This document shows positions 2,688 to 61,227 of a stretch of 64,000 bases of DNA, piece after piece; within the stretch, counting starts at the first letter, position 1, and every line of letters starts with the position of its first letter. Made by a program: the position numbers and the translations under genes. Origin of the DNA: Shigella phage Shfl2. Under the pieces are notes generated by a model. The model was not told the DNA's origin. It searched no databases and was given only the letters and a program-made list of their open reading frames with translations. The DNA is taken from sequence record HM035025, one strand, 5' to 3'.

Positions 2688-3112
2688 TGCTTCTGATCCC
2701 TGAAACTCATGAATTAGTTCTCGAGAATGTCGAAGCACTTATTCCTGAAGCACAGGGTCGCTTTGACGAATTGTCTTCTGCTTTAAATAAAGACGATATA
2801 AATACAATTGTCGAGAATATGCTTGATGATGAAACTGATTTAGCAGTTGCATTAGCTTCTATTAATGAAAATATGCCGTTAAATGAATTCATTGTTAAGC
2901 ATGTTTCAGCTCGTGGTGAAATTACACGTACTAAAGACCGCAAAACGCGCGAACGTAATGCATTTCAAACCACTGGGCTGTCTAAAGCAAAACGTAGACA
3001 AATTGCTCGCAAAGCTACCAAAACGAAGATTGCCAATCCAGCAGGTCAATCTCGTGCTCAGCGTAAGCGTAAAAAAGCTCTTAAACGCCGTAAAGCATTA
3101 GGATTAAGCTAA
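2687..3112 (+). CDS. 68: Prohead core protein gp68
   Basis: 141 aa, basic C-terminus, start overlaps gp67 stop; T4 position of gene 68. Confidence 0.8.
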
Positions 3113-3780: not shown

Positions 3781-4590
3781 ATGCTTAAAGAACAACTGAT
3801 TGCTGAAGCGCAAAAAATTGATGCTTCCGTTGCTCTTGATAGTATTTTCGAATCAGTTAATATTTCTCCGGAAGCAAAAGAAACTTTCGGCACTGTATTC
3901 GAAGCTACCGTCAAGCAGCACGCCGTTAAATTAGCTGAATCTCATATCGCTAAAATTGCTGAAAAAGCAGAAGAAGAAGTAGAAAAAAATAAAGAAGAAG
4001 CCGAAGAAAAAGCTGAGAAGAAAATCGCTGAGCAAGCTTCTAAATTCATCGACCATCTTGCGAAAGAATGGCTCGCCGAAAATAAATTAGCAGTTGATAA
4101 AGGCATCAAAGCCGAACTGTTTGAATCCATGCTTGGTGGATTAAAAGAGCTCTTTGTTGAACACAACGTTGTTGTTCCAGAAGAATCAGTTGATGTTGTA
4201 GCTGAAATGGAAGAAGAGCTGCAAGAACATAAAGAAGAATCAGCTCGTCTGTTCGAAGAACTCAATAAGCGTGACGCATATATCAATTATGTGCAGCGTG
4301 AAGTGGCATTGAGCGAAAGTACTAAAGATCTGACTGAGTCTCAAAAAGAAAAAGTCTCTGCTCTGGTCGAAGGTATGGATTATTCAGATGAATTCTCAAG
4401 TAAATTGAGTGCCATCGTAGAAATGGTGAAGAAGTCTAATAAAGATGAAAGCACTATTACTGAGGGTATAAATACTCCTGATACTGAAGCAGCCGGACTG
4501 AATTTCGTCACTGAAGCTGTAGAAGATAAAGCTGCACCTGGTGCAGAAGATATTGTAAGTGTATATGCGAAAGTCGCATCTCGTTTCTAA
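3781..4590 (+). CDS. 22: Prohead core scaffold protein gp22
   Basis: 269 aa, acidic coiled-coil-like composition (EEEVEKNKEEAEEKAEKK), T4 gp22 length and position. Confidence 0.9.
   Translation: MLKEQLIAEAQKIDASVALDSIFESVNISPEAKETFGTVFEATVKQHAVKLAESHIAKIAEKAEEEVEKNKEEAEEKAEKKIAEQASKFIDHLAKEWLAENKLAVDKGIKAELFESMLGGLKELFVEHNVVVPEESVDVVAEMEEELQEHKEESARLFEELNKRDAYINYVQREVALSESTKDLTESQKEKVSALVEGMDYSDEFSSKLSAIVEMVKKSNKDESTITEGINTPDTEAAGLNFVTEAVEDKAAPGAEDIVSVYAKVASRF
4467..4474 (+). promoter_or_regulatory. Late promoter (TATAAATA) inside gene 22, likely serving gene 23
   Basis: Exact TATAAATA within 3' part of gene 22, 134 nt upstream of gene 23 ATG. Confidence 0.55.
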
Positions 4591-4608
4591 TTTTAAAGGT
4601 TAACACAA

Positions 4609-6174
4609 ATGACTATCAAAACTAAAGCTGAACTTTTGAACAAATGGAAGCCATTACTGGAAGGTGAAGGTTTACCGGAAATTGCTAATAGCAAACAAGC
4701 GATTATCGCTAAAATCTTTGAAAACCAGGAAAAAGATTTCCAGACAGCTCCAGAGTACAAAGACGAAAAAATCGCTCAGGCGTTCGGTTCTTTCTTAACA
4801 GAAGCTGAAATCGGTGGTGACCACGGTTACAATGCTACTAACATCGCTGCTGGTCAGACTTCTGGCGCAGTAACTCAGATTGGCCCAGCTGTTATGGGTA
4901 TGGTACGTCGTGCTATTCCTAACCTGATTGCTTTCGATATTTGCGGTGTTCAGCCGATGAACAGCCCGACTGGCCAGGTATTCGCCCTGCGCGCAGTATA
5001 TGGTAAAGACCCAATCGCTTCCGGTGCTAAAGAAGCATTCCACCCAATGTATGGCCCAGATGCAATGTTCTCTGGTCAGGGTGCTGCTAAGAAATTCCCG
5101 GCTCTGGCTGCTAGCACAGAAACCACAGTAGGTGATATCTATACTCACTTCTTCCAGGACACTGGTACTGTGTATCTGCAGGCTTCTGCTCAAGTAACAA
5201 TTAGTGCAAGCGCAACTGATGCAGCTAAATTAGATGCTGAAATTAAGAAACAAATGGAAGCTGGTGCATTGGTAGAAATCGCTGAAGGTATGGCTACTTC
5301 TATCGCTGAACTCCAGGAAGGTTTCAACGGTTCTACCGATAACCCATGGAATGAAATGGGCTTCCGTATCGATAAACAAGTTATCGAAGCTAAATCTCGC
5401 CAGCTGAAAGCTGCTTACTCTATTGAATTAGCACAAGACCTCCGCGCTGTTCACGGTATGGATGCTGATGCCGAACTGTCTGGTATTCTGGCTACCGAAA
5501 TCATGCTGGAAATCAACCGCGAAGTTGTTGATTGGATTAACTACTCGGCTCAGGTTGGTAAATCTGGTATGACCCTGACTCCGGGTTCTAAAGCTGGCGT
5601 ATTTGACTTCCAGGATCCGATTGATATTCGTGGTGCTCGCTGGGCGGGTGAATCCTTTAAAGCTCTGTTGTTCCAGATTGACAAAGAAGCAGTTGAAATT
5701 GCTCGTCAGACCGGTCGCGGTGAAGGTAACTTCATTATCGCTTCCCGTAACGTAGTTAACGTTCTGGCTTCAGTTGATACTGGCATTTCTTATGCTGCAC
5801 AGGGTCTGGCTACCGGCTTTAACACTGATACTACCAAGTCAGTATTTGCTGGTGTTCTGGGTGGTAAATACCGTGTATATATCGACCAGTATGCTAAACA
5901 GGATTATTTCACTGTAGGTTATAAAGGTCCGAACGAAATGGATGCTGGTATTTACTATGCTCCATATGTAGCTCTGACTCCGCTGCGTGGTTCCGATCCG
6001 AAGAACTTCCAACCAGTAATGGGATTCAAAACTCGTTACGGTATCGGTATCAACCCATTTGCAGAATCCGCTGCTCAGGCTCCGGCTTCTCGCATCCAGA
6101 GCGGTATGCCTTCTATTCTGAACAGCCTTGGTAAGAACGCTTACTTCCGCCGTGTATATGTTAAAGGTATCTAA
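4609..6174 (+). CDS. 23: Major capsid protein gp23
   Basis: 521 aa, same length as T4 gp23; strong highly-expressed-gene codon bias (ctg/ggt/cgt rich). Confidence 0.97.
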   Translation: MTIKTKAELLNKWKPLLEGEGLPEIANSKQAIIAKIFENQEKDFQTAPEYKDEKIAQAFGSFLTEAEIGGDHGYNATNIAAGQTSGAVTQIGPAVMGMVRRAIPNLIAFDICGVQPMNSPTGQVFALRAVYGKDPIASGAKEAFHPMYGPDAMFSGQGAAKKFPALAASTETTVGDIYTHFFQDTGTVYLQASAQVTISASATDAAKLDAEIKKQMEAGALVEIAEGMATSIAELQEGFNGSTDNPWNEMGFRIDKQVIEAKSRQLKAAYSIELAQDLRAVHGMDADAELSGILATEIMLEINREVVDWINYSAQVGKSGMTLTPGSKAGVFDFQDPIDIRGARWAGESFKALLFQIDKEAVEIARQTGRGEGNFIIASRNVVNVLASVDTGISYAAQGLATGFNTDTTKSVFAGVLGGKYRVYIDQYAKQDYFTVGYKGPNEMDAGIYYAPYVALTPLRGSDPKNFQPVMGFKTRYGIGINPFAESAAQAPASRIQSGMPSILNSLGKNAYFRRVYVKGI

Positions 6175-19617: not shown

Positions 19618-20712
19618 ATGGCAATTGTTAAAGAAATAACTGCTGATTTAATTAAAAAGTCCGGTGAGAAAATTTCAGCCGGACAGAGTACTAAATCAGA
19701 AGTAGCAACTAAAACATACACTGCCCAGTTTCCAACTGGGCGTGCTAGTGGTAATGACACTACAGGGGACTTCCAGGTAACAGATTTATATAAGAATGGA
19801 TTATTATTTACTGCATACAATATGTCATCTAGGGATTCTGGAAGTCTTAGATCGATGAGATCTAACTACTCTTCTTCATCTTCGAGTATTTTAAGTACAG
19901 CTAGAAACACTATTAGTAGTACAGTATCAAAACTATCAAATGGATTAATATCAAACAATAATTCAGGAACAATAAGTAAAGCTCCTGTGGCAAATATTCT
20001 TTTACCGAGATCTAAATCTGATGTTGATACATCATCACATAGATTTAATGATGTTCAAGAAAGTCTTATCAGCAGAGGCGGAGGTACTGCTACTGGCGTG
20101 TTAAGTAATATTGCTTCAACTGCAGTATTTGGTGCGCTAGAAAGTATAACACAAGGTATAATGGCTGATAATAATGAACAGATTTATACGACAGCCAGAA
20201 GTATGTATGGCGGTGCTGAGAATAGAACTAAAGTGTTTACATGGGATTTGACTCCACGTTCAACAGAAGATTTAATGGCTATTATTAATATCTATCAATA
20301 TTTTAACTATTTTTCTTATGGTGAAACGGGTAAATCTCAATATGCTGCTGAAATAAAGGGGTATTTAGATGATTGGTATCGTTCTACGTTAATTGAACCT
20401 TTATCTCCGGAAGACGCGGCTAAAAATAAAACACTATTTGAGAAAATGACATCGAGTTTAACTAACGTTCTAGTAGTTTCAAACCCGACAATTTGGATGG
20501 TGAAAAACTTTGGTGCAACATCTAAGTTTGATGGAAAAACGGAAATATTTGGCCCATGCCAAATACAGAGCATCAGATTTGATAAAACACCTAATGGTAA
20601 CTTTAACGGATTAGCTATTGCTCCAAACCTCCCTAGTACATTTACTCTTGAGATTACTATGAGAGAAATTATCACGTTAAACCGTGCTTCTTTATATGCG
20701 GGGACTTTTTAA
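19618..20712 (+). CDS. 48: Baseplate tail tube cap gp48
   Basis: 364 aa, T4 position. Confidence 0.9.
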   Translation: MAIVKEITADLIKKSGEKISAGQSTKSEVATKTYTAQFPTGRASGNDTTGDFQVTDLYKNGLLFTAYNMSSRDSGSLRSMRSNYSSSSSSILSTARNTISSTVSKLSNGLISNNNSGTISKAPVANILLPRSKSDVDTSSHRFNDVQESLISRGGGTATGVLSNIASTAVFGALESITQGIMADNNEQIYTTARSMYGGAENRTKVFTWDLTPRSTEDLMAIINIYQYFNYFSYGETGKSQYAAEIKGYLDDWYRSTLIEPLSPEDAAKNKTLFEKMTSSLTNVLVVSNPTIWMVKNFGATSKFDGKTEIFGPCQIQSIRFDKTPNGNFNGLAIAPNLPSTFTLEITMREIITLNRASLYAGTF

Positions 20713-50015: not shown

Positions 50016-50023
50016 TATAAATA
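50016..50023 (+). promoter_or_regulatory. Late promoter (TATAAATA) for gene 34
   Basis: Exact TATAAATA 34 nt upstream of gene 34 ATG, back-to-back with the rnh early promoter. Confidence 0.65.
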
Positions 50024-50057: not shown

Positions 50058-53000
50058 ATGGCCGAGATTAAAAGAAAGTTCAGAGCAGAAGATGGTCTGG
50101 ACGCAGGTGGTGATAAAATAATCAACGTAGCTTTAGCTGATCGTACCGTAGGAACTGACGGTGTTAACGTTGATTATCTAATTCAAGAAAACACAGTTCA
50201 ACAATACGATCCAACTCGTGGATATTTAAAAGATTTTGTAATCATTTATGATAACCGCTTTTGGGCTGCTATAAATGATATTCCAAAACCGGCAGGAGCT
50301 TTTAATAGCGGACGCTGGAGAGCATTACGTACCGATGCTAACTGGATTACAGTTTCATCCGGTTCATATCAATTAAAATCCGGTGAAGCTATTTCGGTTA
50401 ACACTGCAGCTGGTAATGATATTACATTTACTTTACCATCTACTCCAATTGACGGTGATACTATCGTTCTCCAAGACATTGGAGGAAAACCTGGAGTTAA
50501 CCAAGTTTTAATTGTAGCTCCAGTGCAAAGTATTGTAAACTTCAGAGGCGAGCAAGTACGTTCAGTACTAATGACTCATCCAAAGTCACAGCTAGTTTTA
50601 ATTTTTAGTAATCGTCTGTGGCAAATGTATGTTGCTGATTATAGCAGAGAAGCTGTAGTTGTAACACCAGCGAATACTTATCAAGCACAATCAAACGATT
50701 TTATCGTACGTAGATTTACTTCTGCTGCACCAATTAATGTTAAACTTCCAAGATTTGCTAATCATGGCGATATTATTAATTTCGTTGATTTAGATAAACT
50801 GAACCCACTTTATCATACAATTGTTACTACATACGATGAAACGACTTCAGTGCAAGAAGTTGGAACTCATTCCATTGAAGTCCGTACATCGATTGACGGT
50901 TTCTTGATGTTTGATGATAATGAGAAATTGTGGAGATTGTTTGACGGGGATAGTAAAGCACGTTTACGCATTATAACGACTAATTCTAATATTCGTCCAA
51001 ACGAAGAAGTTATGGTATTTGGTGCGAATAACGGAACAACTCAAACAATTGAGCTTCAGCTTCCAACTAATATTTCTGTTGGTGATACTGTTAAAATTTC
51101 CATGAATTACATGAGAAAAGGACAAACAGTTAAAATCAAAGCTGCGGGCGAAGATAAAATTGCTTCTTCAGTTCAATTGCTGCAATTCCCAAAACGTTCA
51201 GAGTATCCACCTGAAGCTGAATGGGTGACTGTCCAAGAATTAGTTTTTAACGGTGAAACTAATTATGTTCCAGTTTTACAACTTGCTTATATAGAAGATT
51301 CTGATGGAAAATACTGGGTTGTACAACAAAACGTTCCAACTGTAGAAAGAGTTGATTCTTTAAATGATTCTACTAGAGCAAGATTAGGCGTGATTGCTTT
51401 AGCTACACAAGCGCAAGCTAATGTCGATTTAGAAAATTCTCCGCAAAAAGAATTAGCAATTACTCCAGAAACATTAGCTAACCGTACTGCTACAGAAACT
51501 CGTAGAGGTATCGCAAGAATAGCAACTACTGCTCAAGTAAATCAGAACACCACATTCTCTTTTGCTGATGATATTATCATCACTCCTAAAAAGCTGAATG
51601 AAAGAACTGCTACAGAAACTCGTAGAGGTGTTGCTGAAATTGCTACGCAGCAAGAAACTAATGCAGGTACTGATGATACTACAATCATCACTCCTAAAAA
51701 GCTTCAAGCTCGTCAAGGTTCTGAGTCATTATCTGGTATTGTAACCTTTGTATCTACCGCAGGAGCTACTCCAGCTTCTAGTCGTGAATTAAATGGTACA
51801 AACGTTTATAATAAAAACACTAATAATTTAGTTGTTTCGCCTAAAGCTCTGGATCAGTATAAAGCTACTCCAACACAACAAGGTGCAGTAATTTTAGCAG
51901 TTGAAAGTGAAGTAATTGCTGGACAGAGCCAAGAAGGATGGGCAAATGCGGTTGTAACGCCAGAAACGTTACATAAAAAGACATCAACTGATGCAAGAAT
52001 TGGTTTAATTGAAATTGCTACACAAAGTGAAGTTAATACAGGAACTGATTATACTCGTGCAGTCACTCCTAAAACTTTAAATGACCGTAAAGCAACTGAA
52101 AGTTTAAGTGGTATAGCTGAAATTGCTACACAAGTTGAATTCGACGCAGGCGTCGACGATACTCGTATTTCTACACCATTAAAAATTAAAACTAGATTTG
52201 ATAGTACTGATCGTACTTCTGTTGTTGCTCTATCTGGATTAGTTGAATCAGGAACTCTCTGGGACCATTATACCCTTAATATTCTTGAAGCAAATGAGAC
52301 ACAGCGTGGTACACTTCGTGTAGCTACACAAGTTGAAGCTGCTGCAGGAACATTAGATAATGTTTTAATAACTCCTAAAAAGCTTTTAGGTACTAAATCT
52401 ACTGAAGCACAGGAAGGTGTTATTAAAGTTGCAACCCAGTCTGAAACTGTGACTGGAACGTCAGCAAATACTGCTGTATCTCCAAAAAATTTAAAATGGA
52501 TTGTGCAGAGTGAACCTACTTGGGCAGCTACTACTGCAATAAGAGGCTTTGTTAAAACTTCATCTGGTTCAATTACATTCGTTGGTAATGATACAGTTGG
52601 TTCAACACAGTCGTTAGAATTATACGAGAAAAATAGCTATGCAGTATCACCATATGAATTAAACCGCGTATTAGCAAATTATTTACCGTTAAAAGCAAAA
52701 GCTGCTGATACAAATTTATTGGATGGTCTAGATTCATCTCAGTTCATTCGTAGGGACATTGCGCAGACAGTTAATGGTTCACTAACCTTAACCCAACAAA
52801 CGAATCTGAGTGCCCCTCTTGTATCATCTAGTACTGCTACATTTGGTGGTTCAGTTTCGGCAAATAGTACATTAACTATTTCTAATACTGGAACGGCAAC
52901 TCGTCTGATTTTTGAGAAAGGACCTCAAACTGGAACTAACCCAGCACAGACGATGACTATCAGAGTTTGGGGAAATCAGTTTGGTGGCGGTTCAGATACA

Positions 53001-53927
53001 ACACGTTCTACTGTATTTGAAGTTGGTGATGAAACGTCTAATCACTTTTATTCTCAACGTAATAAAGCTGGGAATATAACGTTTAGTATCAATGGTACTG
53101 TGATGCCGATAAATGTTAATGCTTCGGGTTCTTTGAACGCGAACGGCGTTGCAACATTTGGTAGTTCAGTTACTGCTAATGGTGAATTCATCAGCAAGTC
53201 TGCAAATGCTTTTAGAGCAATAAGTGGTAATTATGGATTCTTTATTCGCAATGATGCCGCTAATACCTATTTTATGCTCACTGCATCCGGTGATCAGACT
53301 GGCGGATTTAATGGATTACGTCCTTTGGCTATTAATAATGCATCTGGCCAAGTAACGATTGGTGAAGGCTTAATCATTGCCAAAGGTGCTACTATAAATT
53401 CAGGTGGTTTAACTGTTAACTCGAGAATTCGTTCTCAGGGTACTAAAACATCTGATTTATATACTCGTGCTCCTACTGCTGATACAGTCGGATTCTGGTC
53501 AATTGATATTAACGATTCAGCCACTTATAACCAATTTCCGGGTTATTTTAAAATGGTTGAAAAAACTAATGAAGTGACTGGGCTTCCATACTTAGAACGT
53601 GGCGAAGAAGTTAAATCTCCTGGTACACTGACTCAGTTTGGTAACACACTTGATTCGCTTTACCAAGATTGGATTACTTATCCAACAACTCCAGAAGCGC
53701 GTACCACTCGTTGGACTCGCACATGGCAGAAAACCAAAAATTCTTGGTCAAGTTTTGTTCAGGTATTTGATGGAGGTAACCCTCCTCAACCATCTGATAT
53801 CGGTGCTTTACCATCTGATAATGCTACAATGGGGAATCTTACTATTCGTGATTTCTTACGAATTGGTAATGTTCGCATTATTCCTGACCCAGTGAATAAA
53901 ACGGTTAAATTTGAATGGGTTGAATAA
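50058..53927 (+). CDS. 34: Long tail fibre proximal subunit gp34
   Basis: 1289 aa, same length as T4 gp34; internal repeated TATETRRG / ITPKKL-type motifs. Confidence 0.95.
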   Translation: MAEIKRKFRAEDGLDAGGDKIINVALADRTVGTDGVNVDYLIQENTVQQYDPTRGYLKDFVIIYDNRFWAAINDIPKPAGAFNSGRWRALRTDANWITVSSGSYQLKSGEAISVNTAAGNDITFTLPSTPIDGDTIVLQDIGGKPGVNQVLIVAPVQSIVNFRGEQVRSVLMTHPKSQLVLIFSNRLWQMYVADYSREAVVVTPANTYQAQSNDFIVRRFTSAAPINVKLPRFANHGDIINFVDLDKLNPLYHTIVTTYDETTSVQEVGTHSIEVRTSIDGFLMFDDNEKLWRLFDGDSKARLRIITTNSNIRPNEEVMVFGANNGTTQTIELQLPTNISVGDTVKISMNYMRKGQTVKIKAAGEDKIASSVQLLQFPKRSEYPPEAEWVTVQELVFNGETNYVPVLQLAYIEDSDGKYWVVQQNVPTVERVDSLNDSTRARLGVIALATQAQANVDLENSPQKELAITPETLANRTATETRRGIARIATTAQVNQNTTFSFADDIIITPKKLNERTATETRRGVAEIATQQETNAGTDDTTIITPKKLQARQGSESLSGIVTFVSTAGATPASSRELNGTNVYNKNTNNLVVSPKALDQYKATPTQQGAVILAVESEVIAGQSQEGWANAVVTPETLHKKTSTDARIGLIEIATQSEVNTGTDYTRAVTPKTLNDRKATESLSGIAEIATQVEFDAGVDDTRISTPLKIKTRFDSTDRTSVVALSGLVESGTLWDHYTLNILEANETQRGTLRVATQVEAAAGTLDNVLITPKKLLGTKSTEAQEGVIKVATQSETVTGTSANTAVSPKNLKWIVQSEPTWAATTAIRGFVKTSSGSITFVGNDTVGSTQSLELYEKNSYAVSPYELNRVLANYLPLKAKAADTNLLDGLDSSQFIRRDIAQTVNGSLTLTQQTNLSAPLVSSSTATFGGSVSANSTLTISNTGTATRLIFEKGPQTGTNPAQTMTIRVWGNQFGGGSDTTRSTVFEVGDETSNHFYSQRNKAGNITFSINGTVMPINVNASGSLNANGVATFGSSVTANGEFISKSANAFRAISGNYGFFIRNDAANTYFMLTASGDQTGGFNGLRPLAINNASGQVTIGEGLIIAKGATINSGGLTVNSRIRSQGTKTSDLYTRAPTADTVGFWSIDINDSATYNQFPGYFKMVEKTNEVTGLPYLERGEEVKSPGTLTQFGNTLDSLYQDWITYPTTPEARTTRWTRTWQKTKNSWSSFVQVFDGGNPPQPSDIGALPSDNATMGNLTIRDFLRIGNVRIIPDPVNKTVKFEWVE

Positions 53928-53935
53928 GAGGTATT

Positions 53936-55051
53936 ATGGAAAAATTTATGGCAGAGTTTGGACAAGGATATGTCCAAACGCCATTTTTATCGGAAAGTAA
54001 TTCAGTAAGATATAAAATAAGCATAGCGGGTTCTTGCCCGCTTTCTACTGCAGGACCATACGTTAAATTTCAGGATAATCCAATTGGAAGTCAAACATTT
54101 AGTGCAGGTCTTCATTTAAGAGTTTTTGACCCTTCCACGGGAGCATTAGTTGATAGTAAGTCATATGCTTTTTCGACTTCAAATGATACAACATCTGCTG
54201 CTTTTGTTAGTTTCATGAATTCTTTGACGAATAATCGAATTGTTGCTATATTAACTAGTGGAAAGGTTAATTTTCCTCCTGAAGTAGTATCTTGGTTAAG
54301 AACAGCAGGAACGTCTGCCTTTCCATCTGACTCTATATTGTCAAGATTTGACGTATCATATGCTGCTTTTTATACTTCTTCTAAAAGAGCTATTGCATTA
54401 GAGCATGTTAAACTGAGTAATAGAAAAAGCACAGATGATTATCAAACTATTTTAGATGTTGTATTTGACAGTTTAGAAGATGTAGGAGCTACCGGGTTTC
54501 CAAGAAGAACGTATGAAAGTGTTGAGCAATTTATGTCAGCCGTTGGTGGAACTAATAACGAAATTGCGCGTCTACCAACTTCAGCTGCTATAAGTAAATT
54601 ATCTGATTATAATTTAATTCCTGGCGATGTTCTTTATCTTAAAGCTCAGTTATATGCTGACACAGATTTATTAGCATTGGGAACTACTAATATTTCAATT
54701 CGTTTTTATAACGCATCTAACGCATATATTTCTTCAACACAGGCTGAGTTTACTGGACAAGCTGGGTCTTGGGAATTAAAAGAAGATTATGTAGTTGTTC
54801 CTGAAAATGCTGTAGGATTTACGATATATGCACAAAGAACTGCACAAGCTGGCCAAGGTGGCATGAGAAATTTAAGCTTTTCTGAAGTATCAAGAAATGG
54901 CGGCATTTCAAAACCCGCTGAATTTGGCGTCAATGGTATTCGTGTTAATTATATTTGTGAATCTGCTTCACCTCCGGATATAATGGTACTTCCTACGCAA
55001 GCATCGTCTAAAACTGGTAAAGTGTTTGGGCAAGAATTTAGAGAAGTATAA
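53936..55051 (+). CDS. 35: Long tail fibre hinge protein gp35
   Basis: 371 aa, T4 position. Confidence 0.9.
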   Translation: MEKFMAEFGQGYVQTPFLSESNSVRYKISIAGSCPLSTAGPYVKFQDNPIGSQTFSAGLHLRVFDPSTGALVDSKSYAFSTSNDTTSAAFVSFMNSLTNNRIVAILTSGKVNFPPEVVSWLRTAGTSAFPSDSILSRFDVSYAAFYTSSKRAIALEHVKLSNRKSTDDYQTILDVVFDSLEDVGATGFPRRTYESVEQFMSAVGGTNNEIARLPTSAAISKLSDYNLIPGDVLYLKAQLYADTDLLALGTTNISIRFYNASNAYISSTQAEFTGQAGSWELKEDYVVVPENAVGFTIYAQRTAQAGQGGMRNLSFSEVSRNGGISKPAEFGVNGIRVNYICESASPPDIMVLPTQASSKTGKVFGQEFREV

Positions 55052-55056
55052 ATTGA

Positions 55057-55080
55057 GGGAGCCTTTGGGTTCCCTTTTTC
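55057..55080 (+). terminator. Rho-independent terminator after gene 35
   Basis: GGGAGCC-UUUG-GGUUCCC hairpin (one G-U pair) followed by UUUUUC. Confidence 0.7.
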
Positions 55081-55082
55081 TT

Positions 55083-55090
55083 TATAAATA
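55083..55090 (+). promoter_or_regulatory. Late promoter (TATAAATA) for gene 36
   Basis: Exact TATAAATA 23 nt upstream of gene 36 ATG. Confidence 0.65.
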
Positions 55091-55113: not shown

Positions 55114-55773
55114 ATGGCTGATTTAAAAGTAGGTTCAACAACCGGAGGCTCTGTCATTTGGCATCAAGGAAATTTTCCATTGAATCCAGCCGGTGACGAT
55201 GTACTCTATAAATCATTTAAAATATATTCAGAATATAATAAACCACAAGCTGCTGATAACGATTTCGTTTCTAAAGCTAATGGCGGTATTTATCTAAACC
55301 GAGTTACCTTTAATCAGGGTATTCAAGTCCCGGGAGCTGGCAATGGTCTGACCGGGATGTTTGTTGGGCCAGGTGATGGAGCAACTTATGATAATGTTAA
55401 CCTTGATATAATATCTTGGTATGGTATCGGATTTAAATCATCTCAAGGAACAGGACCTAGGACAATTGTTTTTAACGTTCGTGACGGTGAAATTTCGGCC
55501 CGTGGTAATATAAATTCACAGCGTCAGGTGCGAGCCGAAGCCGCAGCGCCCATTGCCGCAAATGACCTTACTAGAAAGGACTATGTTGATGGAGCAATAA
55601 ATACTGTTACGGCAAATGCGAACTCTAGAGTGTTACGATCTGGCGACACTATGACGGGTAACTTAACCGCACCAAACTTTTTTTCGCAGAATCCTGCATC
55701 TCAACCTTCACACGTTCCGCGATTTGACCAAATCGTAATTAAGGATTCTGTTCAAGATTTCGGCTATTATTAA
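55114..55773 (+). CDS. 36: Long tail fibre distal connector gp36
   Basis: 219 aa, T4 position. Confidence 0.9.
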
Positions 55774-55781
55774 GAGGACTT

Positions 55782-58700
55782 ATGGCTACTTTAAAACAAA
55801 TACAATTTAAAAGAAGCAAAACCGCAGGTGCACGTCCTGCTGCTTCAGTATTAGCCGAAGGTGAATTGGCTATAAACTTAAAAGATAGAACAATTTTTAC
55901 TAAAGATGATTCAGGAAATATCATTGATTTAGGTATTGCTAAAGGCGGTCAAATTGATGGAAATGTGACTATTGATGGAACTTTACGCGTCAATGGACCA
56001 ATAAACAACTTTGGAAATTTTTCTACAAGTGGTACTATTACGGCAAGTAATATTGTTTCTGCTACAGTATTCAGATCAACATCCGGTTCATTTTATACAA
56101 GAGCAATAAATGATACTGCAAATGCCCATCTTTGGTTTGAAAATACAAATGGCTCAGAACGTGGCGTTTTATATTCAAAACCACAGTCTGAAAATGAAGG
56201 CGTAATTACAATGCGCGTTCGTCAAGGAACCGCAGCAGGGGCTCAAAATTCAGAATTTCATTTCATTTCTACTGATGGCGGTATCTTCCAGGCACGCAAA
56301 TTAACTGCTTTAACTTCTATTAGTACACCAACTATTAGTGTTAATTTAATTAATCACGATTCTAAAGCCTTTGGACAATATGATTCACAGTCATTAGTTC
56401 AGTATGTTTATCCTGGAACAGGTGAAACAAATGGCGTAAACTATCTTCGTAAAGTTCGTGCTAAATCAGGTGGCACTATGTGGCATGAGCTTTGTACTGC
56501 TCAGACTGGCCAGGCTGATGAAATGTCATGGTGGACCGGTAATACTCCTCAGTCTAAACAATACGGTATTCGTAATGACGGACGAATGGCTGGACGTAAT
56601 AGCCTTGCATTAGGTACATTCACTACAAATTTCCCGTCTAGTGATTATGGCAACGTCGGTGTAATGGGCGATAAGTATCTTGTTCTCGGTGACACTGTAA
56701 CTGGCTTGTCATACAAAAAAACTGGTGTATTTGATCTAGTTGGCGGTGGATATTCTGTTGCTTCTATTACTCCTGACGGTTTCCGTAGTACTCGTAAAGG
56801 TATATTTGGTCGTTCCGAGGACCAAGGCACCACATGGATTATGCCTGGCACTAATGCCGCTTTCTTGTCTGTTCAAACGCAAGCTGATAATAACAATGCT
56901 GGAGACGGCCAGACGCATATTGGGTACAATGCTGGCGGTAAAATGAGTCATTATTTCCGCGGTAAAGGCAAAACTAATATTAATACTCAGGAAGGTGTAG
57001 ACGTTAACCCAGGTATATTGAAGTTAACCACCGGCGGTGAAAGTATTAGCTTTAATGCCGCAACTGGAAGTATTAATTCTACATTAGCTTTTCGTCTTAA
57101 TAAAGGCATAATTATTGATGGACCTGATAATCAGGGATTCCAGTTTAACGCCCCGACGGCTGCAGATGGTACTAGAAGTATATACTGGAACAGTGGTACT
57201 CGCGCAGGTCAAAACAAAAGCCCTGTTACAGTTAAAGTGTGGGGTAATTCATTTAACACATCTGGCGATCGTGCTCGTGAAACGGTTTTTGAAGTAGCTG
57301 ATGGACAAGGTTACCATTTTTATTCTCAACGCGTAGCTCCTGCACCTGGTTCGACTGTCGGGCCTATTCAACTCCGAGTTAATGGTGGTTTATTAACTTC
57401 AGGTAGTATTGTTACTTCTGGTTCTATTACAACCGAATCAAGCTTAGTTGCAAATAATGGATTGTCTGTAAATGGACAAGCTAAATTTGGCGGAACAGCA
57501 AACGCACTAAGAATTTGGAACGCTGAATATGGTGCTATTTTCCGTCGTTCAGAAAGTAACTTTTATATTATTCCAACCAATCAAAATGAAGGCGAAAGTG
57601 GAGACATTCACAGCTCTTTGAGACCTGTGAGAATAGGATTAAACGATGGCATGGTTGGGTTAGGAAGAGATTCTTTTATAGTAGATCAAAATAATGCTTT
57701 AACTACTATAAACAGTAACTCTCGCATTAATGCCAACTTTAGAATGCAATTAGGACAAAATGCTTATATAGATATTGAGGCTTCTGATGGAGTTCGTCCA
57801 ACAGGTTGTGGTTCATTTGCATCTCAGAATGACGTAAACGTCAGAGCTCCAATTTATATGAATATAGAGCGTACTGCTACTTCTGAATACATTCCTATTG
57901 TTAAACAACGGTATGTAAAGGGTGATAGTACTTATTCTATTGGCACCTTAATTTCTCAAGGAGACTTCCGCGTCCATTATCACCAGGGTACTAGTACTAC
58001 CGGCACTGATTTAAGTTGGGAATTCCGTCGCACAGGCGATTTCCGCGCGGCAGGTAAAATTATTGCTGGTGCTGCTACTCTTGGCACTGATGGTAATATT
58101 ACTGGCGGTTCTGGTAACTTTGCTAACCTGAATACCACATTAAATCGTAAGGTAAATTCCGGATTTGTAACATACGGTGCAACGGCCGGATGGTACAAAT
58201 TCGCTACAGTAACGATGCCACAATCCACTTCTACGGTCTTCTTTAAAATAGCCGGTGGTTCTGGATTTAATAGCGGATTATTCACACAATGCAATATTGC
58301 TGAAATTGTTTTACGTACTAGTAATGAAAGACCTGCTGACTTAAATGCTGTATTATATACAAGAACATCTGGACTGTATAGCGCAGCATTTAGAAATATT
58401 GCAGTTAACAATGTCTCTGGAAATACATATGACATTTATGTTTATGCTGGAACATATTGTAATCAACTAGCGTGTGAATGGTCATGTACCGAAAATGCTA
58501 CTGTTAGCGTTATTGGTATTAACTCATCTACACAATCACCTATAGATGCTCTTCCAGATACAGCAGTTAACGGTCAAGTTGCTAATGTTCTTAATAACTT
58601 GGTTGATCGTGGTAAAGCAAAACGTTATGTAGCAGAATCTGAAATTGCTATTAATAACCAAACGGGTCTTCGTATTACGAGTAATTCTGATAGATCAGGT

Positions 58701-59717
58701 TCTAATTCCGTTTTATTTCGAAATGACGGTGGAAGCTTCTATATTTTACTGACTGACAAAAACTCTTCAGACGGCGATAATAAAGCAACTGAAGGCGATT
58801 GGAATGGAAAACGACCGTTTTCAATCGATATGACTGCTGGTACTGTTCGTCTTGGCGAAAATACTTCTTTTGATAAAGATATTACTATTAATGGAAACAT
58901 TAATTCACGAGTTAAAGCTGCCGGACAATGGAGTGTTAGCTTTTCTGCTATTTCAGATGTGACTCGCGACAATTCTGCATTCTTAGCGAATACGGGTGGC
59001 ATTTCCAAGACAAGTCAAGCTTATTACCCGCTATTTTCTGGATACAGTTTTTTAACTGACGCGGGTTATCTTCAATCGTTTGAGTTTGGATGGTTAGGTG
59101 TTTCTGGTACTTGGCGCCAAGGCATTATTCGCATGCGTGGTGACAACCCATCGGGGCAACAGGCTCGTTGGACTTTTGATATGGACGGAACATTTTATGC
59201 TCCTATACTATCATGCGGATCTGCGAGAGCATTCGGTGTCAATACATCAAATGGTCTCGGTGGAAATAGTATAACATTTGGTGATAGCGATACTGGTATT
59301 AAGCAAAATGGCGATGGATTATTAGACATATATGCGAACAACGTACAAGTATTCCGTTTCCAAAACGGTGATTTGTACTCATACAAAAATATAAATGCTC
59401 CAAACGTTTATATTCGTTCTGATATTCGTTTAAAATCCAACTTTAAACCTATCGAAAATGCACTTGATAAAGTTGAAAAACTTAACGGTGTCATTTACGA
59501 TAAAGCTGAATACATCGGTGGAGAGGCAATTGAAACTGAAGCGGGTATTGTGGCTCAAACGTTACAAGACGTTTTACCAGAAGCTGTCCGTGAAACAGAA
59601 GACAGCAAGGGTAATAAAATACTCACTGTTTCTTCTCAAGCCCAGATTGCTCTTCTGGTTGAAGCTGTGAAAACACTTTCTTCTCGTGTAAAAGAACTTG
59701 AATCTAAACTTATGTAA
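55782..59717 (+). CDS. 37: Long tail fibre distal subunit gp37, T2-type with C-terminal intramolecular chaperone domain
   Basis: 1311 aa; conserved N-terminus [13 protein letters not shown]...; C-terminal ~110 aa [32 protein letters not shown]... resembles the autoproteolytic chaperone domain of phage fibre/endosialidase proteins. Confidence 0.9.
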
Positions 59718-59719
59718 AA

Positions 59720-59735
59720 GAGGGCTTCGGCCCTC
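59720..59735 (+). other. UUCG tetraloop hairpin GAGGGC-UUCG-GCCCUC between genes 37 and 38
   Basis: Perfect 6-bp stem; no downstream U-tract, so probably a partial terminator or RNA-stabilising structure. Confidence 0.55.
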
Positions 59736-59747
59736 TAAGGATTTTTA

Positions 59748-60539
59748 ATGGCAATTGTAGGTGTTCCTGGCTGGATTGGTGAATCTGCCGTGAATGAAAC
59801 AGGACAGCGTTGGATGGATGCTGCAATGAGAGCAGTTCGTGTTTCAGTTCCCGGTTGGATGAGTTCAATGGCTGGGCAATCTAAAGAAGTATATTATAGC
59901 GTTGGTGCTAGCAATTCTTACAATAAAGACACACTAATAAATTGGATAAAAGCCCAAGGCAGTACTCCTGTTGTTATTACTATTACAGGAAATATTGTTT
60001 CTCAATCTACTGGTGTTCCATGCTTAGATTTTCCTAGCTCATTAACTAATGCGTATGTTACCTTAAATATTAATAGCGGGGTTCATGTATTAGGTCGGGG
60101 AGGAAATGGCGGAAGTAACTCTGCTGGTGGAGCAGGAGGAACTGCAATAAATAACGGAATTGGAACTCGTTTAAGAATAAACAATAATGGTATTATTGGT
60201 GGTGGCGGCGGTGGCGGCGCAGGTGCTAGATACAATCCTTTCCCTCAAATGGATATGAAATTTGGCGGCGGAGGAGGTCGTCCATTTGGTGCTGCCGGTG
60301 CAGCCGGTGGCGGCGCAGCGGCAGCATCTGCCGGTACAATTTCTGCTCCTGGTAAAGGCACTGTTTCTGGTGTTCACCATGGAGGAGATGGTGGAGATTT
60401 GGGAGCTGCTGGCAAATCTTCATATATTCAAGGTGGTACTGGAGGAACTGTTCACTCGGGTGGTGCTGCGGGCAAAGCTGTTACTGGTAATGCTCCAACT
60501 TGGACTAAAGTTGGTACAATATACGGTTCAAGAGTATAA
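59748..60539 (+). CDS. 38: Receptor-recognising adhesin gp38 (T2/T6 type)
   Basis: 263 aa; conserved N-terminus MAIVGVPGWIGESAVNETGQRWM, glycine-rich tracts (GGGGGGGAGA, GGGGGRPFGAAGAAGGGAAAA) separating variable segments, C-terminus YGSRV. Confidence 0.88.
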   Translation: MAIVGVPGWIGESAVNETGQRWMDAAMRAVRVSVPGWMSSMAGQSKEVYYSVGASNSYNKDTLINWIKAQGSTPVVITITGNIVSQSTGVPCLDFPSSLTNAYVTLNINSGVHVLGRGGNGGSNSAGGAGGTAINNGIGTRLRINNNGIIGGGGGGGAGARYNPFPQMDMKFGGGGGRPFGAAGAAGGGAAAASAGTISAPGKGTVSGVHHGGDGGDLGAAGKSSYIQGGTGGTVHSGGAAGKAVTGNAPTWTKVGTIYGSRV

Positions 60540-60570
60540 TTTTGAATAAATATCCTTAAAAGGAGGGTCT

Positions 60571-61227
60571 ATGGCAGCACCTAGAATATCATTTTCGCCC
60601 TCTGATATTCTATTTGGTGTTCTAGATCGCTTGTTCAAAGATAACGCTACTGGGAAGGTTCTTGCTTCCCGGGTAGCTGTCGTAATTCTTTTATTTATGA
60701 TGGCGATTGTTTGGTATAGGGGAGATAGTTTCTTTGAGTACTATAAGCAATCAAAGTATGAAACATACAGTGAAATTATTGAAAAGGAAAGAAATGCACG
60801 CTTTGAATCTGTCGCCCTGGAACAACTCCAGATAGTTCATATATCATCTGAGGCAGACTTTAGTGCGGTGTATTCTTTCCGCCCTAAAAACTTAAACTAT
60901 TTTGTTGATATTATAGCATATGAAGGAAAATTACCTTCAACAATAAGTGAAAAATCACTTGGAGGATATCCTGTTGATAAAACTATGGATGAATATACAG
61001 TTCATTTAAATGGACGTCATTATTATTCCGATTCAAAATTTGCTTTTTTACCAACTAAAAAGCCTACTCCCGAAATAAACTACATGTACAGTTGTCCATA
61101 TTTTAATTTGGATAATATCTATGCTGGAACGATAACCATGTACTGGTATAGAAATGATCATATAAGTAATGACCGCCTTGAATCAATATGTGCTCAGGCG
61201 GCCAGAATATTAGGAAGGGCTAAATAA
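60571..61227 (+). CDS. t: Holin t
   Basis: 218 aa, single N-terminal TM segment (VAVVILLFMMAIVWY) and large periplasmic domain, T4 holin length. Confidence 0.93.
   Translation: MAAPRISFSPSDILFGVLDRLFKDNATGKVLASRVAVVILLFMMAIVWYRGDSFFEYYKQSKYETYSEIIEKERNARFESVALEQLQIVHISSEADFSAVYSFRPKNLNYFVDIIAYEGKLPSTISEKSLGGYPVDKTMDEYTVHLNGRHYYSDSKFAFLPTKKPTPEINYMYSCPYFNLDNIYAGTITMYWYRNDHISNDRLESICAQAARILGRAK

Follow-up and report, generated by a model that had tools for sequence, protein, structure and literature searches.

In phages of the T2 type, gp38 serves as the adhesin at the tip of the long tail fibre, and the C-terminus of the distal fibre subunit gp37 is removed; for T2 and T6, this cleavage is followed by capping of gp37 with gp38 (PMC3157838). 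The structural template for such tips comes from Salmonella phage S16, in which a gp37 trimer is capped by a gp38 monomer with a polyglycine-II sandwich and the gp38 tryptophans are inserted into three equivalent pockets of the trimer (PMC6851490). The S16 gp37 chain is cut at DLNVS^SDRRIKK (PMC7917993). Closely related gp38 adhesins have a common receptor (PMC12032242, PMC3157838), and that of T2 is FadL/OmpF (PMC8594841). Here, we analyze genes 37 and 38 of Shigella phage Shfl2, contained in a stretch of 64,000 nucleotides from sequence record HM035025 (henceforth termed the window). A first-pass annotation of this DNA had proposed a T2-type fibre-tip module with a cleavable gp37 C-terminus and a separate gp38 adhesin, and the background on which it drew is the one stated in the structural, cleavage-site and T2/T6 studies cited above. 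We find that the locus is very probably the T2-type distal long-tail-fibre module of Shfl2, with Tsx as its predicted primary receptor: gp37 ends in a chaperone-type domain with a Ser-Lys dyad and lacks the needle of T4, and a separate GP38 adhesin with docking tryptophans follows. These are the ordinary receptor-recognition parts of a T4-like phage, already annotated, with nothing new in their architecture. What the analysis adds is the exact predicted cut site, a gp38 that is chimeric between T2 and T6, the Tsx prediction with a caveat of four residues, and a map of the gp37 mosaic.

Gene 37 (55782–59717) encodes a protein of 1311 amino acids assigned to PHROG 1699 ('long tail fiber protein distal subunit', E = 0), and gene 38 (59748–60539) a T2-type tail-fibre adhesin of 263 amino acids and 25.6 kDa, recognized by Pfam, PHROG and PDB matches. 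Both genes lie on the plus strand, as do all their segments discussed below, and the open reading frame (ORF) list places them exactly where, and at the lengths at which, they were first reported. An exact-sequence look-up identified gp37 residue for residue as Shfl2 YP_004415140.1 ('long tail fiber protein distal subunit') and gp38 as YP_004415141.1 ('tail fiber protein; host specificity / receptor-recognizing protein gp38'); NCBIfam holds no model for either protein. Gene 38 sits directly between gene 37 and the holin gene t, an order also found in T2, T6, S16, RB18, Bas43 and AV114. At the nucleotide level, the flanks of the locus are at least 95% identical to T4, T2 and T6, and between about 56,000 and 60,500 there is either no alignment or an identity of 65–80%; the best match in the local phage collection reaches 93.4% (Kha5h, JLBYU24, Kelasse). 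Divergence at the locus forms an island with sharp borders, and this collapse between conserved flanks supports the earlier proposal that receptor-specificity differences most likely reside here.

The gp37 shaft and its C-terminal chaperone domain

The N-terminal two-thirds of gp37 had been described as typical of this protein, in line with a BLASTP alignment in which residues 1–840 (55782–58301), or 64% of the protein, match T4 gp37 at 66% identity; this shared shaft includes a gp34-like trimerization module recognized by Pfam and PDB matches. Beyond residue 840, BLASTP against T4 gp37 returned no alignment. The T4 needle carries HxH motifs at residues 883, 915, 929, 966, 980, 989 and 998. 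Shfl2 gp37 has a single HxH (T4: eight), HYH732, equivalent to the HYH742 motif that T4 carries outside its needle, and its histidines number 10 in total versus 24 in T4 gp37. A search of solved structures with gp37 returned gp34 fragments and the S16 tip (6F45_A, residues 1157–1309) and did not return the T4 needle. An HxH-rich needle homologous to T4 gp37 residues 785–1026 was found neither by BLASTP nor in the PDB search, as had been suspected when the histidine-rich needle was first noted to be lacking. Residues 841–1212 (58302–59417) form a T2-type distal region that has no T4 counterpart and ends in the tip onto which gp38 would dock, with the sequence from residue 1157 onward aligning to the S16 gp37 tip (6F45_A).

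The remainder of the chain, residues 1213–1311 (59418–59714), is an intramolecular chaperone (IMC) domain of 99 amino acids and 10.8 kDa. It is recognized as Peptidase_S74 (PF13884) over residues 1213–1270 of the 1311, scoring 56.5 bits (cut-off 22) with an E-value of 3.5e-15. The domain opens with the motif SDIRLK, which contains the catalytic Ser-Lys dyad (S1213/K1218), and the gp37 proteins of T2 (S1243), T6 (S882) and S16 (S638) carry the same dyad motif. When the last 149 residues were searched alone, they matched S16 gp37 (6F45_A, E 8e-12) and the autoprocessing domain of MYRF (7dc3, E 1e-3), with the dyad motif in register between SDIRLK, SDRRIK of S16 and (A)DLRAK of MYRF. Because 158 of the last 160 residues are identical to T2 gp37, and given the processing described for T2 and T6 and the published S16 site, we infer that the C-terminus is released by autoproteolysis in Shfl2 as well. 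Alignment to S16 predicts the cut at NVYIR1212^S1213DIRLK, by which a precursor of 140.6 kDa would yield a mature chain of 129.8 kDa and a released piece of 10.8 kDa. The first-pass annotation had described an autoproteolytic, chaperone-like C-terminus of about 110 residues, and the peptide that it quoted is present from residue 1210 onward. Its reading of the domain type agrees with the Peptidase_S74 match and the dyad, but its length needs correction, as the segment predicted to be released comprises 99 residues (S1213–M1311).

The gp38 adhesin and its predicted receptor

Two Pfam families together cover nearly all of gp38: Gp38_N (PF21721) at residues 1–42, scoring 64.6 bits (E 8e-18), and GP38 (PF05268) at residues 47–263, scoring 233 bits (E 4.8e-69), where the cut-off is 25 bits in both cases. 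The protein belongs to PHROG 2056 ('tail fiber protein; host specificity', E 1e-101), and its residues 8–261 match the crystal structure of S16 gp38 (6F45_D, E 8.7e-48) as well as a GFP-gp38 fusion entry (9v85). BLASTP of gp38 against T4 gp38 gave no match at E-values up to 10. In several records, the gene homologous to g38 is nevertheless labelled 'distal long tail fiber assembly catalyst' or 'tail assembly protein'. These names would fit a T4-type arrangement, with gp38 acting only as an assembly chaperone that is missing from virions and receptor binding left to the gp37 C-terminus. Such labels are a carry-over from T4 by gene position. Shfl2 shows no similarity to T4 gp38 or to the T4 gp37 needle, its gp38 strongly matches the adhesin family and the S16 gp38 crystal structure, and its gp37 ends in a presumably self-cleaving chaperone rather than a binding tip. 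We rejected the reading of gp38 as a chaperone for its lack of similarity to T4 gp38, and the probability of a T4-type arrangement is practically negligible.

As in an adhesin of the T2 type, three parts of gp38 can be delimited by alignment. The attachment domain (residues 1–45; 59748–59882) is of the T2 subtype and carries W9, W22 and W37, which are invariant in an alignment of six phages (Shfl2, Bas43, Kha5h, T6, T2 and S16). The specificity domain (residues 116–242; 60093–60473) consists of glycine-rich motifs, at approximately residues 116–131, 151–157, 173–181, 212–216 and 238–242, and the variable segments between them. Glycine accounts for 47 of its 127 residues (61 in the whole protein), and the Gly codons of gp38 explain a local rise in GC content to 0.49 at 60000–60499. 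The conserved C-terminal segment (residues 243–263; 60474–60536) corresponds to the part that closes the beta-helix in described adhesins (PMC12032242). Homology to 6F45 shows, at the sequence level, a predicted layout of beta-helix and polyglycine-II sandwich.

Compared with T2, gp38 is 98% identical at residues 1–45 and 83% at residues 241–263, with only 22–40% across residues 161–240 (40% at residues 161–185). Against T6 the corresponding values are 67% at residues 1–45, 72% at residues 161–185 and 70% in the C-terminal segment. By these comparisons, gp38 is a chimera whose attachment domain is T2-like and whose variable segments resemble those of T6, and its T2-subtype attachment domain is paired with a T2-type gp37 tip, as the lock-and-key pairing described in PMC3157838 predicts. 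The conserved termini, glycine-rich tracts and intervening variable segments that had been read from the sequence were all recovered, and aligning gp38 with the T2, T6 and S16 adhesins, a check suggested at that stage, delimited the variable segments between the glycine-rich motifs.

Taken from homologous systems, the following sequence of events can be proposed for Shfl2. gp37 would be made as the 140.6-kDa precursor, and its 99-residue IMC would drive trimerization of the beta-helical gp37 tip, after which the IMC would cut itself off by autoproteolysis, using Ser1213 and Lys1218, at the R1212–S1213 bond. If the S16 structure is a valid guide, the exposed trimeric tip (...NVYIR) would then bind one gp38 monomer via W9, W22 and W37. 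The distal variable loops of gp38 would be left to contact the receptor, predicted to be Tsx.

The receptor prediction starts from the identity of gp38 to other adhesins, which by tblastn is 99.2% to RB18 and UFV13, 97.7% to Bas43 (TadeuszReichstein), 97.0% to the Mosigvirus phages AV109, AV114 and AV115, and 84% to Bas39 (FriedrichMiescher) and JK38. Tsx is the primary receptor of Bas43 and Bas39 according to the BASEL supplementary table (PMC8594841), AV114 and AV115 recognize Tsx (PMC10844046), and JK38 is listed as Tsx/Kdo (bioRxiv 10.64898/2026.04.02.716166). Since Shfl2 gp38 is 97–98% identical to adhesins of phages that experimentally require Tsx, this nucleoside channel of the outer membrane is the likely primary receptor of Shfl2, as it is for T6, rather than the FadL/OmpF of T2.

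Several observations weigh against this assignment or the structural picture behind it. Relative to all typed Tsx binders, gp38 of Shfl2, like that of RB18 and UFV13, shows four linked differences (N163H, K171I, H211Y and D214N), which lie in or adjoin the hypervariable segments (HVS) HVS2 and HVS3, the latter at its border with glycine-rich motif 4 (HVS3/GRM4); Shfl2 gp38 is identical to that of RB18 over residues 116–263. Our literature search found no published receptor for RB18, UFV13 or Shfl2, and the searchable literature contained no receptor mutant plating or virion mass spectrometry on Shfl2. A single HVS substitution can switch the receptor, as with Q206L in RB68, which changes OmpF to OmpW (bioRxiv 10.64898/2026.04.02.716166), and T6 and PST are set apart by three residues (PMC3157838). 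Finally, single-sequence AlphaFold2 gave unusable models of gp38 (confidence score pLDDT 34.8) and of gp37 residues 1134–1311 (pLDDT 47.2), so that the fold assignments for both proteins rest on sequence homology to solved structures.

The four substitutions raise the alternative that, within the architecture as described, Tsx is replaced or joined by another primary receptor, with the N163/K171/H211/D214 sub-allele redirecting or broadening binding, for example to OmpA, another beta-barrel protein or a loop variant. Their location in HVS2 and at the HVS3/GRM4 border would suit such a role, all experimentally typed relatives carry the other allele (H/I/Y/N), and one to three HVS changes are enough in the literature to switch or extend specificity. 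However, the other 123 of the 127 specificity-domain residues are the same as in Tsx-dependent phages, the gp38 of Bas39 is still Tsx-specific at merely 84% identity, and nearly all Tsx binders have one HVS set despite small differences (Trojet et al., PMC3157838). On balance, we regard a receptor other than, or additional to, Tsx as unlikely. The narrower idea that the sub-allele shared by Shfl2, RB18 and UFV13 is a natural specificity variant, directed at another Tsx loop variant (e.g., that of Shigella) or at a second or new outer-membrane protein, appears quite unlikely.

AV108, which is reported to depend on OmpA, was considered as the nearest comparator outside the Tsx group, but the position of g38 is occupied there by an ORF of 80 amino acids, so that no comparison was possible. 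In the record of this Krischvirus (OR352938), that ORF (19887–20126) is all that is found downstream of g37, with no gp38 adhesin. This agrees with the report that gp38 lies about 55 kb from g37 in Krischvirus (bioRxiv 10.64898/2026.04.02.716166).

With Tsx as the probable receptor, the locus gains a small but real use for a phage of the kind employed therapeutically against Shigella and E. coli: it may help to compose cocktails whose members depend on different receptors and to foresee resistance arising through loss of tsx.

Mosaicism and expression of the locus

To map the mosaic, gp37 was compared with Kha5h and T2 in windows of 50 amino acids. Identity to Kha5h, otherwise the nearest relative, is 94–100% everywhere except at residues 651–950, where it falls to 58–82%. 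Identity to T2 is 98–100% at residues 1–50 and 1151–1300, and 18–50% at residues 51–200 and 851–1100. The patch that departs from Kha5h, delimited by identity comparisons to residues 641–960 (57702–58661), is recombinant. Its first part, from residue 641 to about 763 (57702–58070), is closest to 310Ecol104PP/FJ1 at approximately 85%, with no phage in the local collection above about 86% identity; its second part, residues 763–960, is 97.5% identical to UFV13/Phaginator. Clustering of approximately 15 billion proteins at 90% identity also leaves gp37 alone in its cluster. By these comparisons, this particular mosaic is unique to Shfl2, and gp37 is a recombinational mosaic of the kind produced by the usual shuffling of T-even fibres, with no new element.

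This patch could be taken to mean that host range is also set by the gp37 shaft, with residues 641–960 contacting lipopolysaccharide or O-antigen or altering fibre geometry, and gp38 alone being insufficient. Nowhere else does gp37 diverge as strongly from its nearest relative, the patch was assembled from two other lineages in a protein that stands alone in its cluster, and porin-specific k-mers have been found in Gp37 as well as in Gp38 (bioRxiv 10.64898/2026.04.02.716166). The same study reports, however, that in T6-like phages a gp38 swap by itself fully switches porin specificity. The patch is also distant from the tip along the sequence, the T2-type tip is capped by gp38, and the mosaicism may simply reflect recombination among repeated fibre modules with linkage to g38. 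We consider a contribution of the shaft to host range very unlikely.

Compared along its length, the module as a whole is a mix of several sources: the shaft is T4-like, patches of gp37 derive from other Tequatrovirus gp37 lineages, the tip, the IMC and the gp38 attachment domain are of the T2 type, and the variable segments resemble those of T6. The module offers a natural example of module shuffling, in which a T2-type tip and attachment domain are combined with T6-type binding loops. The tip is not confined to Tequatrovirus: Mosigvirus AV114 has the same gp38 allele (97%; record positions 4501–5292), gp37 tip and IMC, and intercistronic hairpin. The tip module has thus been exchanged between genera. 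Within the shaft, residues 464–659 (57171–57758) resemble the trimerization module of gp34 (PDB 4UXE/5NXF; Pfam Gp34_trimer at residues 493–617). As this module is common to g37 and the C-terminal trimerization domain of g34, it could be a substrate for intra-genomic recombination. In the record of Kha5h (KT184312), a 13-bp feature within gene 37 (2989–3001) is labelled 'attP, prophage attachment site (type 2851)'; in a strictly lytic T4-like phage, this annotation is almost certainly spurious.

Upstream of g37 lie g34 (50058–53927), g35 (53936–55051) and g36 (55114–55773), and downstream of g38 the holin gene t (60571–61227). An exact T4-type late promoter box, TATAAATA, is located on the plus strand at 55083–55090, 31 nt upstream of the g36 ATG, and a second exact copy at 50016–50023 precedes the g34 ATG by 42 nt. 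Between g35 and the g36 promoter box lies a terminator-like hairpin that includes a T-run (55055–55076). No exact late-promoter box was found between g36, g37 and g38, so that these three genes look like one late transcription unit. Its transcript probably starts at the 55083 box, for which promoter function is presumed from T4. Between gp38 and holin t, a gap of 31 nt contains AATAAATA (60545–60552), which differs from the late-promoter box by one mismatch and may serve t as a weak late promoter. In the neighboring gp35, the proximal hinge connector, residues 58–126 (54107–54313) match the Pfam family ILEI (PF15711) at 36 bits, above its cut-off of 27, with an E-value of 1e-8. The family is named for the interleukin-like inducer of epithelial–mesenchymal transition, an unexpected name for a phage hinge protein.

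The gap between g37 and g38 holds a hairpin on the plus strand (59719–59736) with a perfect stem of 7 bp, AGAGGGC paired with GCCCUCU, a UUCG tetraloop and a free energy of -13.4 kcal/mol. It begins 2 nt past the g37 stop and is followed by a Shine-Dalgarno sequence, AAGGA (59737–59741), and then the g38 ATG. T2, RB18 and AV114 carry the identical sequence, and in T6 and S16 the site is taken by hairpins that differ in sequence; structure rather than sequence thus seems to be conserved at this gap, as judged from the five relatives compared. The hairpin is probably an mRNA-stabilizing or attenuating (partial termination) element, akin to the 'C(UUCG)G' type known from T4.

Other features of the region were few. 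Antisense ORFs within g37 and g38 (151, 89 and 95 amino acids) had no PHROG match and were dismissed as genes for want of family support. A repeat search at the DNA level returned only short, weak repeats in the locus, reflecting runs of Gly codons and fibre motifs. An Rfam scan of the whole 64-kb window gave no family at gathering score and hence no tRNA cluster or group I intron there. Group I introns are present in the nrd and td genes of some T-even phages.

Comparison with known systems

The architecture, cleavage mechanism and adhesin fold that emerge for Shfl2 are textbook for T-even phages, both proteins are correctly named in GenBank, and the locus raises no new biological question; its individuality lies in how its parts relate to those of described tips. 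T4 shares the operon position and has gp34, gp35 and t proteins that are 96–99% identical, and the likeness extends through gp37 residues 1–840 at 66%. Unlike T4, Shfl2 has no HxH iron-binding needle, no gp37 homology past residue 840, and an unrelated gp38. The IMC belongs to the endosialidase type (PF13884), as found in K1F endosialidase, T5 pb1 and MYRF, with which it has in common a C-terminal position in a trimeric fibre and the S-D-x-R-x-K dyad. It differs in that the predicted cut would open a site at which a separate adhesin docks, instead of completing a self-sufficient spike.

Among phages with a capped tip, S16 (PDB 6F45) is similar over gp38 residues 8–261, including the tryptophans and glycine-rich motifs, and its gp37 tip and IMC cleavage motif are in register with those of Shfl2. 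Its gp38 is only 48% identical, however, its gp37 (749 amino acids) and IMC (112 amino acids) differ in length, and it belongs to another genus (Gelderlandvirus) and infects another host. The receptor of S16 is OmpC.

The T6/Tsx subtype of gp38, represented by Bas43, Bas39, AV114/AV115 and JK38, shares with Shfl2 the T6/Tsx kind of variable segments, with identities over the entire protein of 97.0–97.7% for AV114 and Bas43, and the typed Tsx binders are distinguished from Shfl2 at the four HVS positions. T6 itself has a gp37 (994 amino acids) that is unrelated save for the first 68 residues and the IMC, and a gp38 attachment domain of another subtype (67%). T2 (AP018813), in turn, agrees with Shfl2 in the gene order g36-g37-g38-t, in a nearly identical gp37 tip and IMC (at least 98% at residues 1151–1212) with SDIRLK at the same place, in the gp38 attachment domain (98%) and in the g37-g38 hairpin. 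The two phages part at gp37 overall, which is 63% identical, and at the variable segments of gp38 (22–40%); T2 uses FadL/OmpF, and Shfl2 is predicted to use Tsx.

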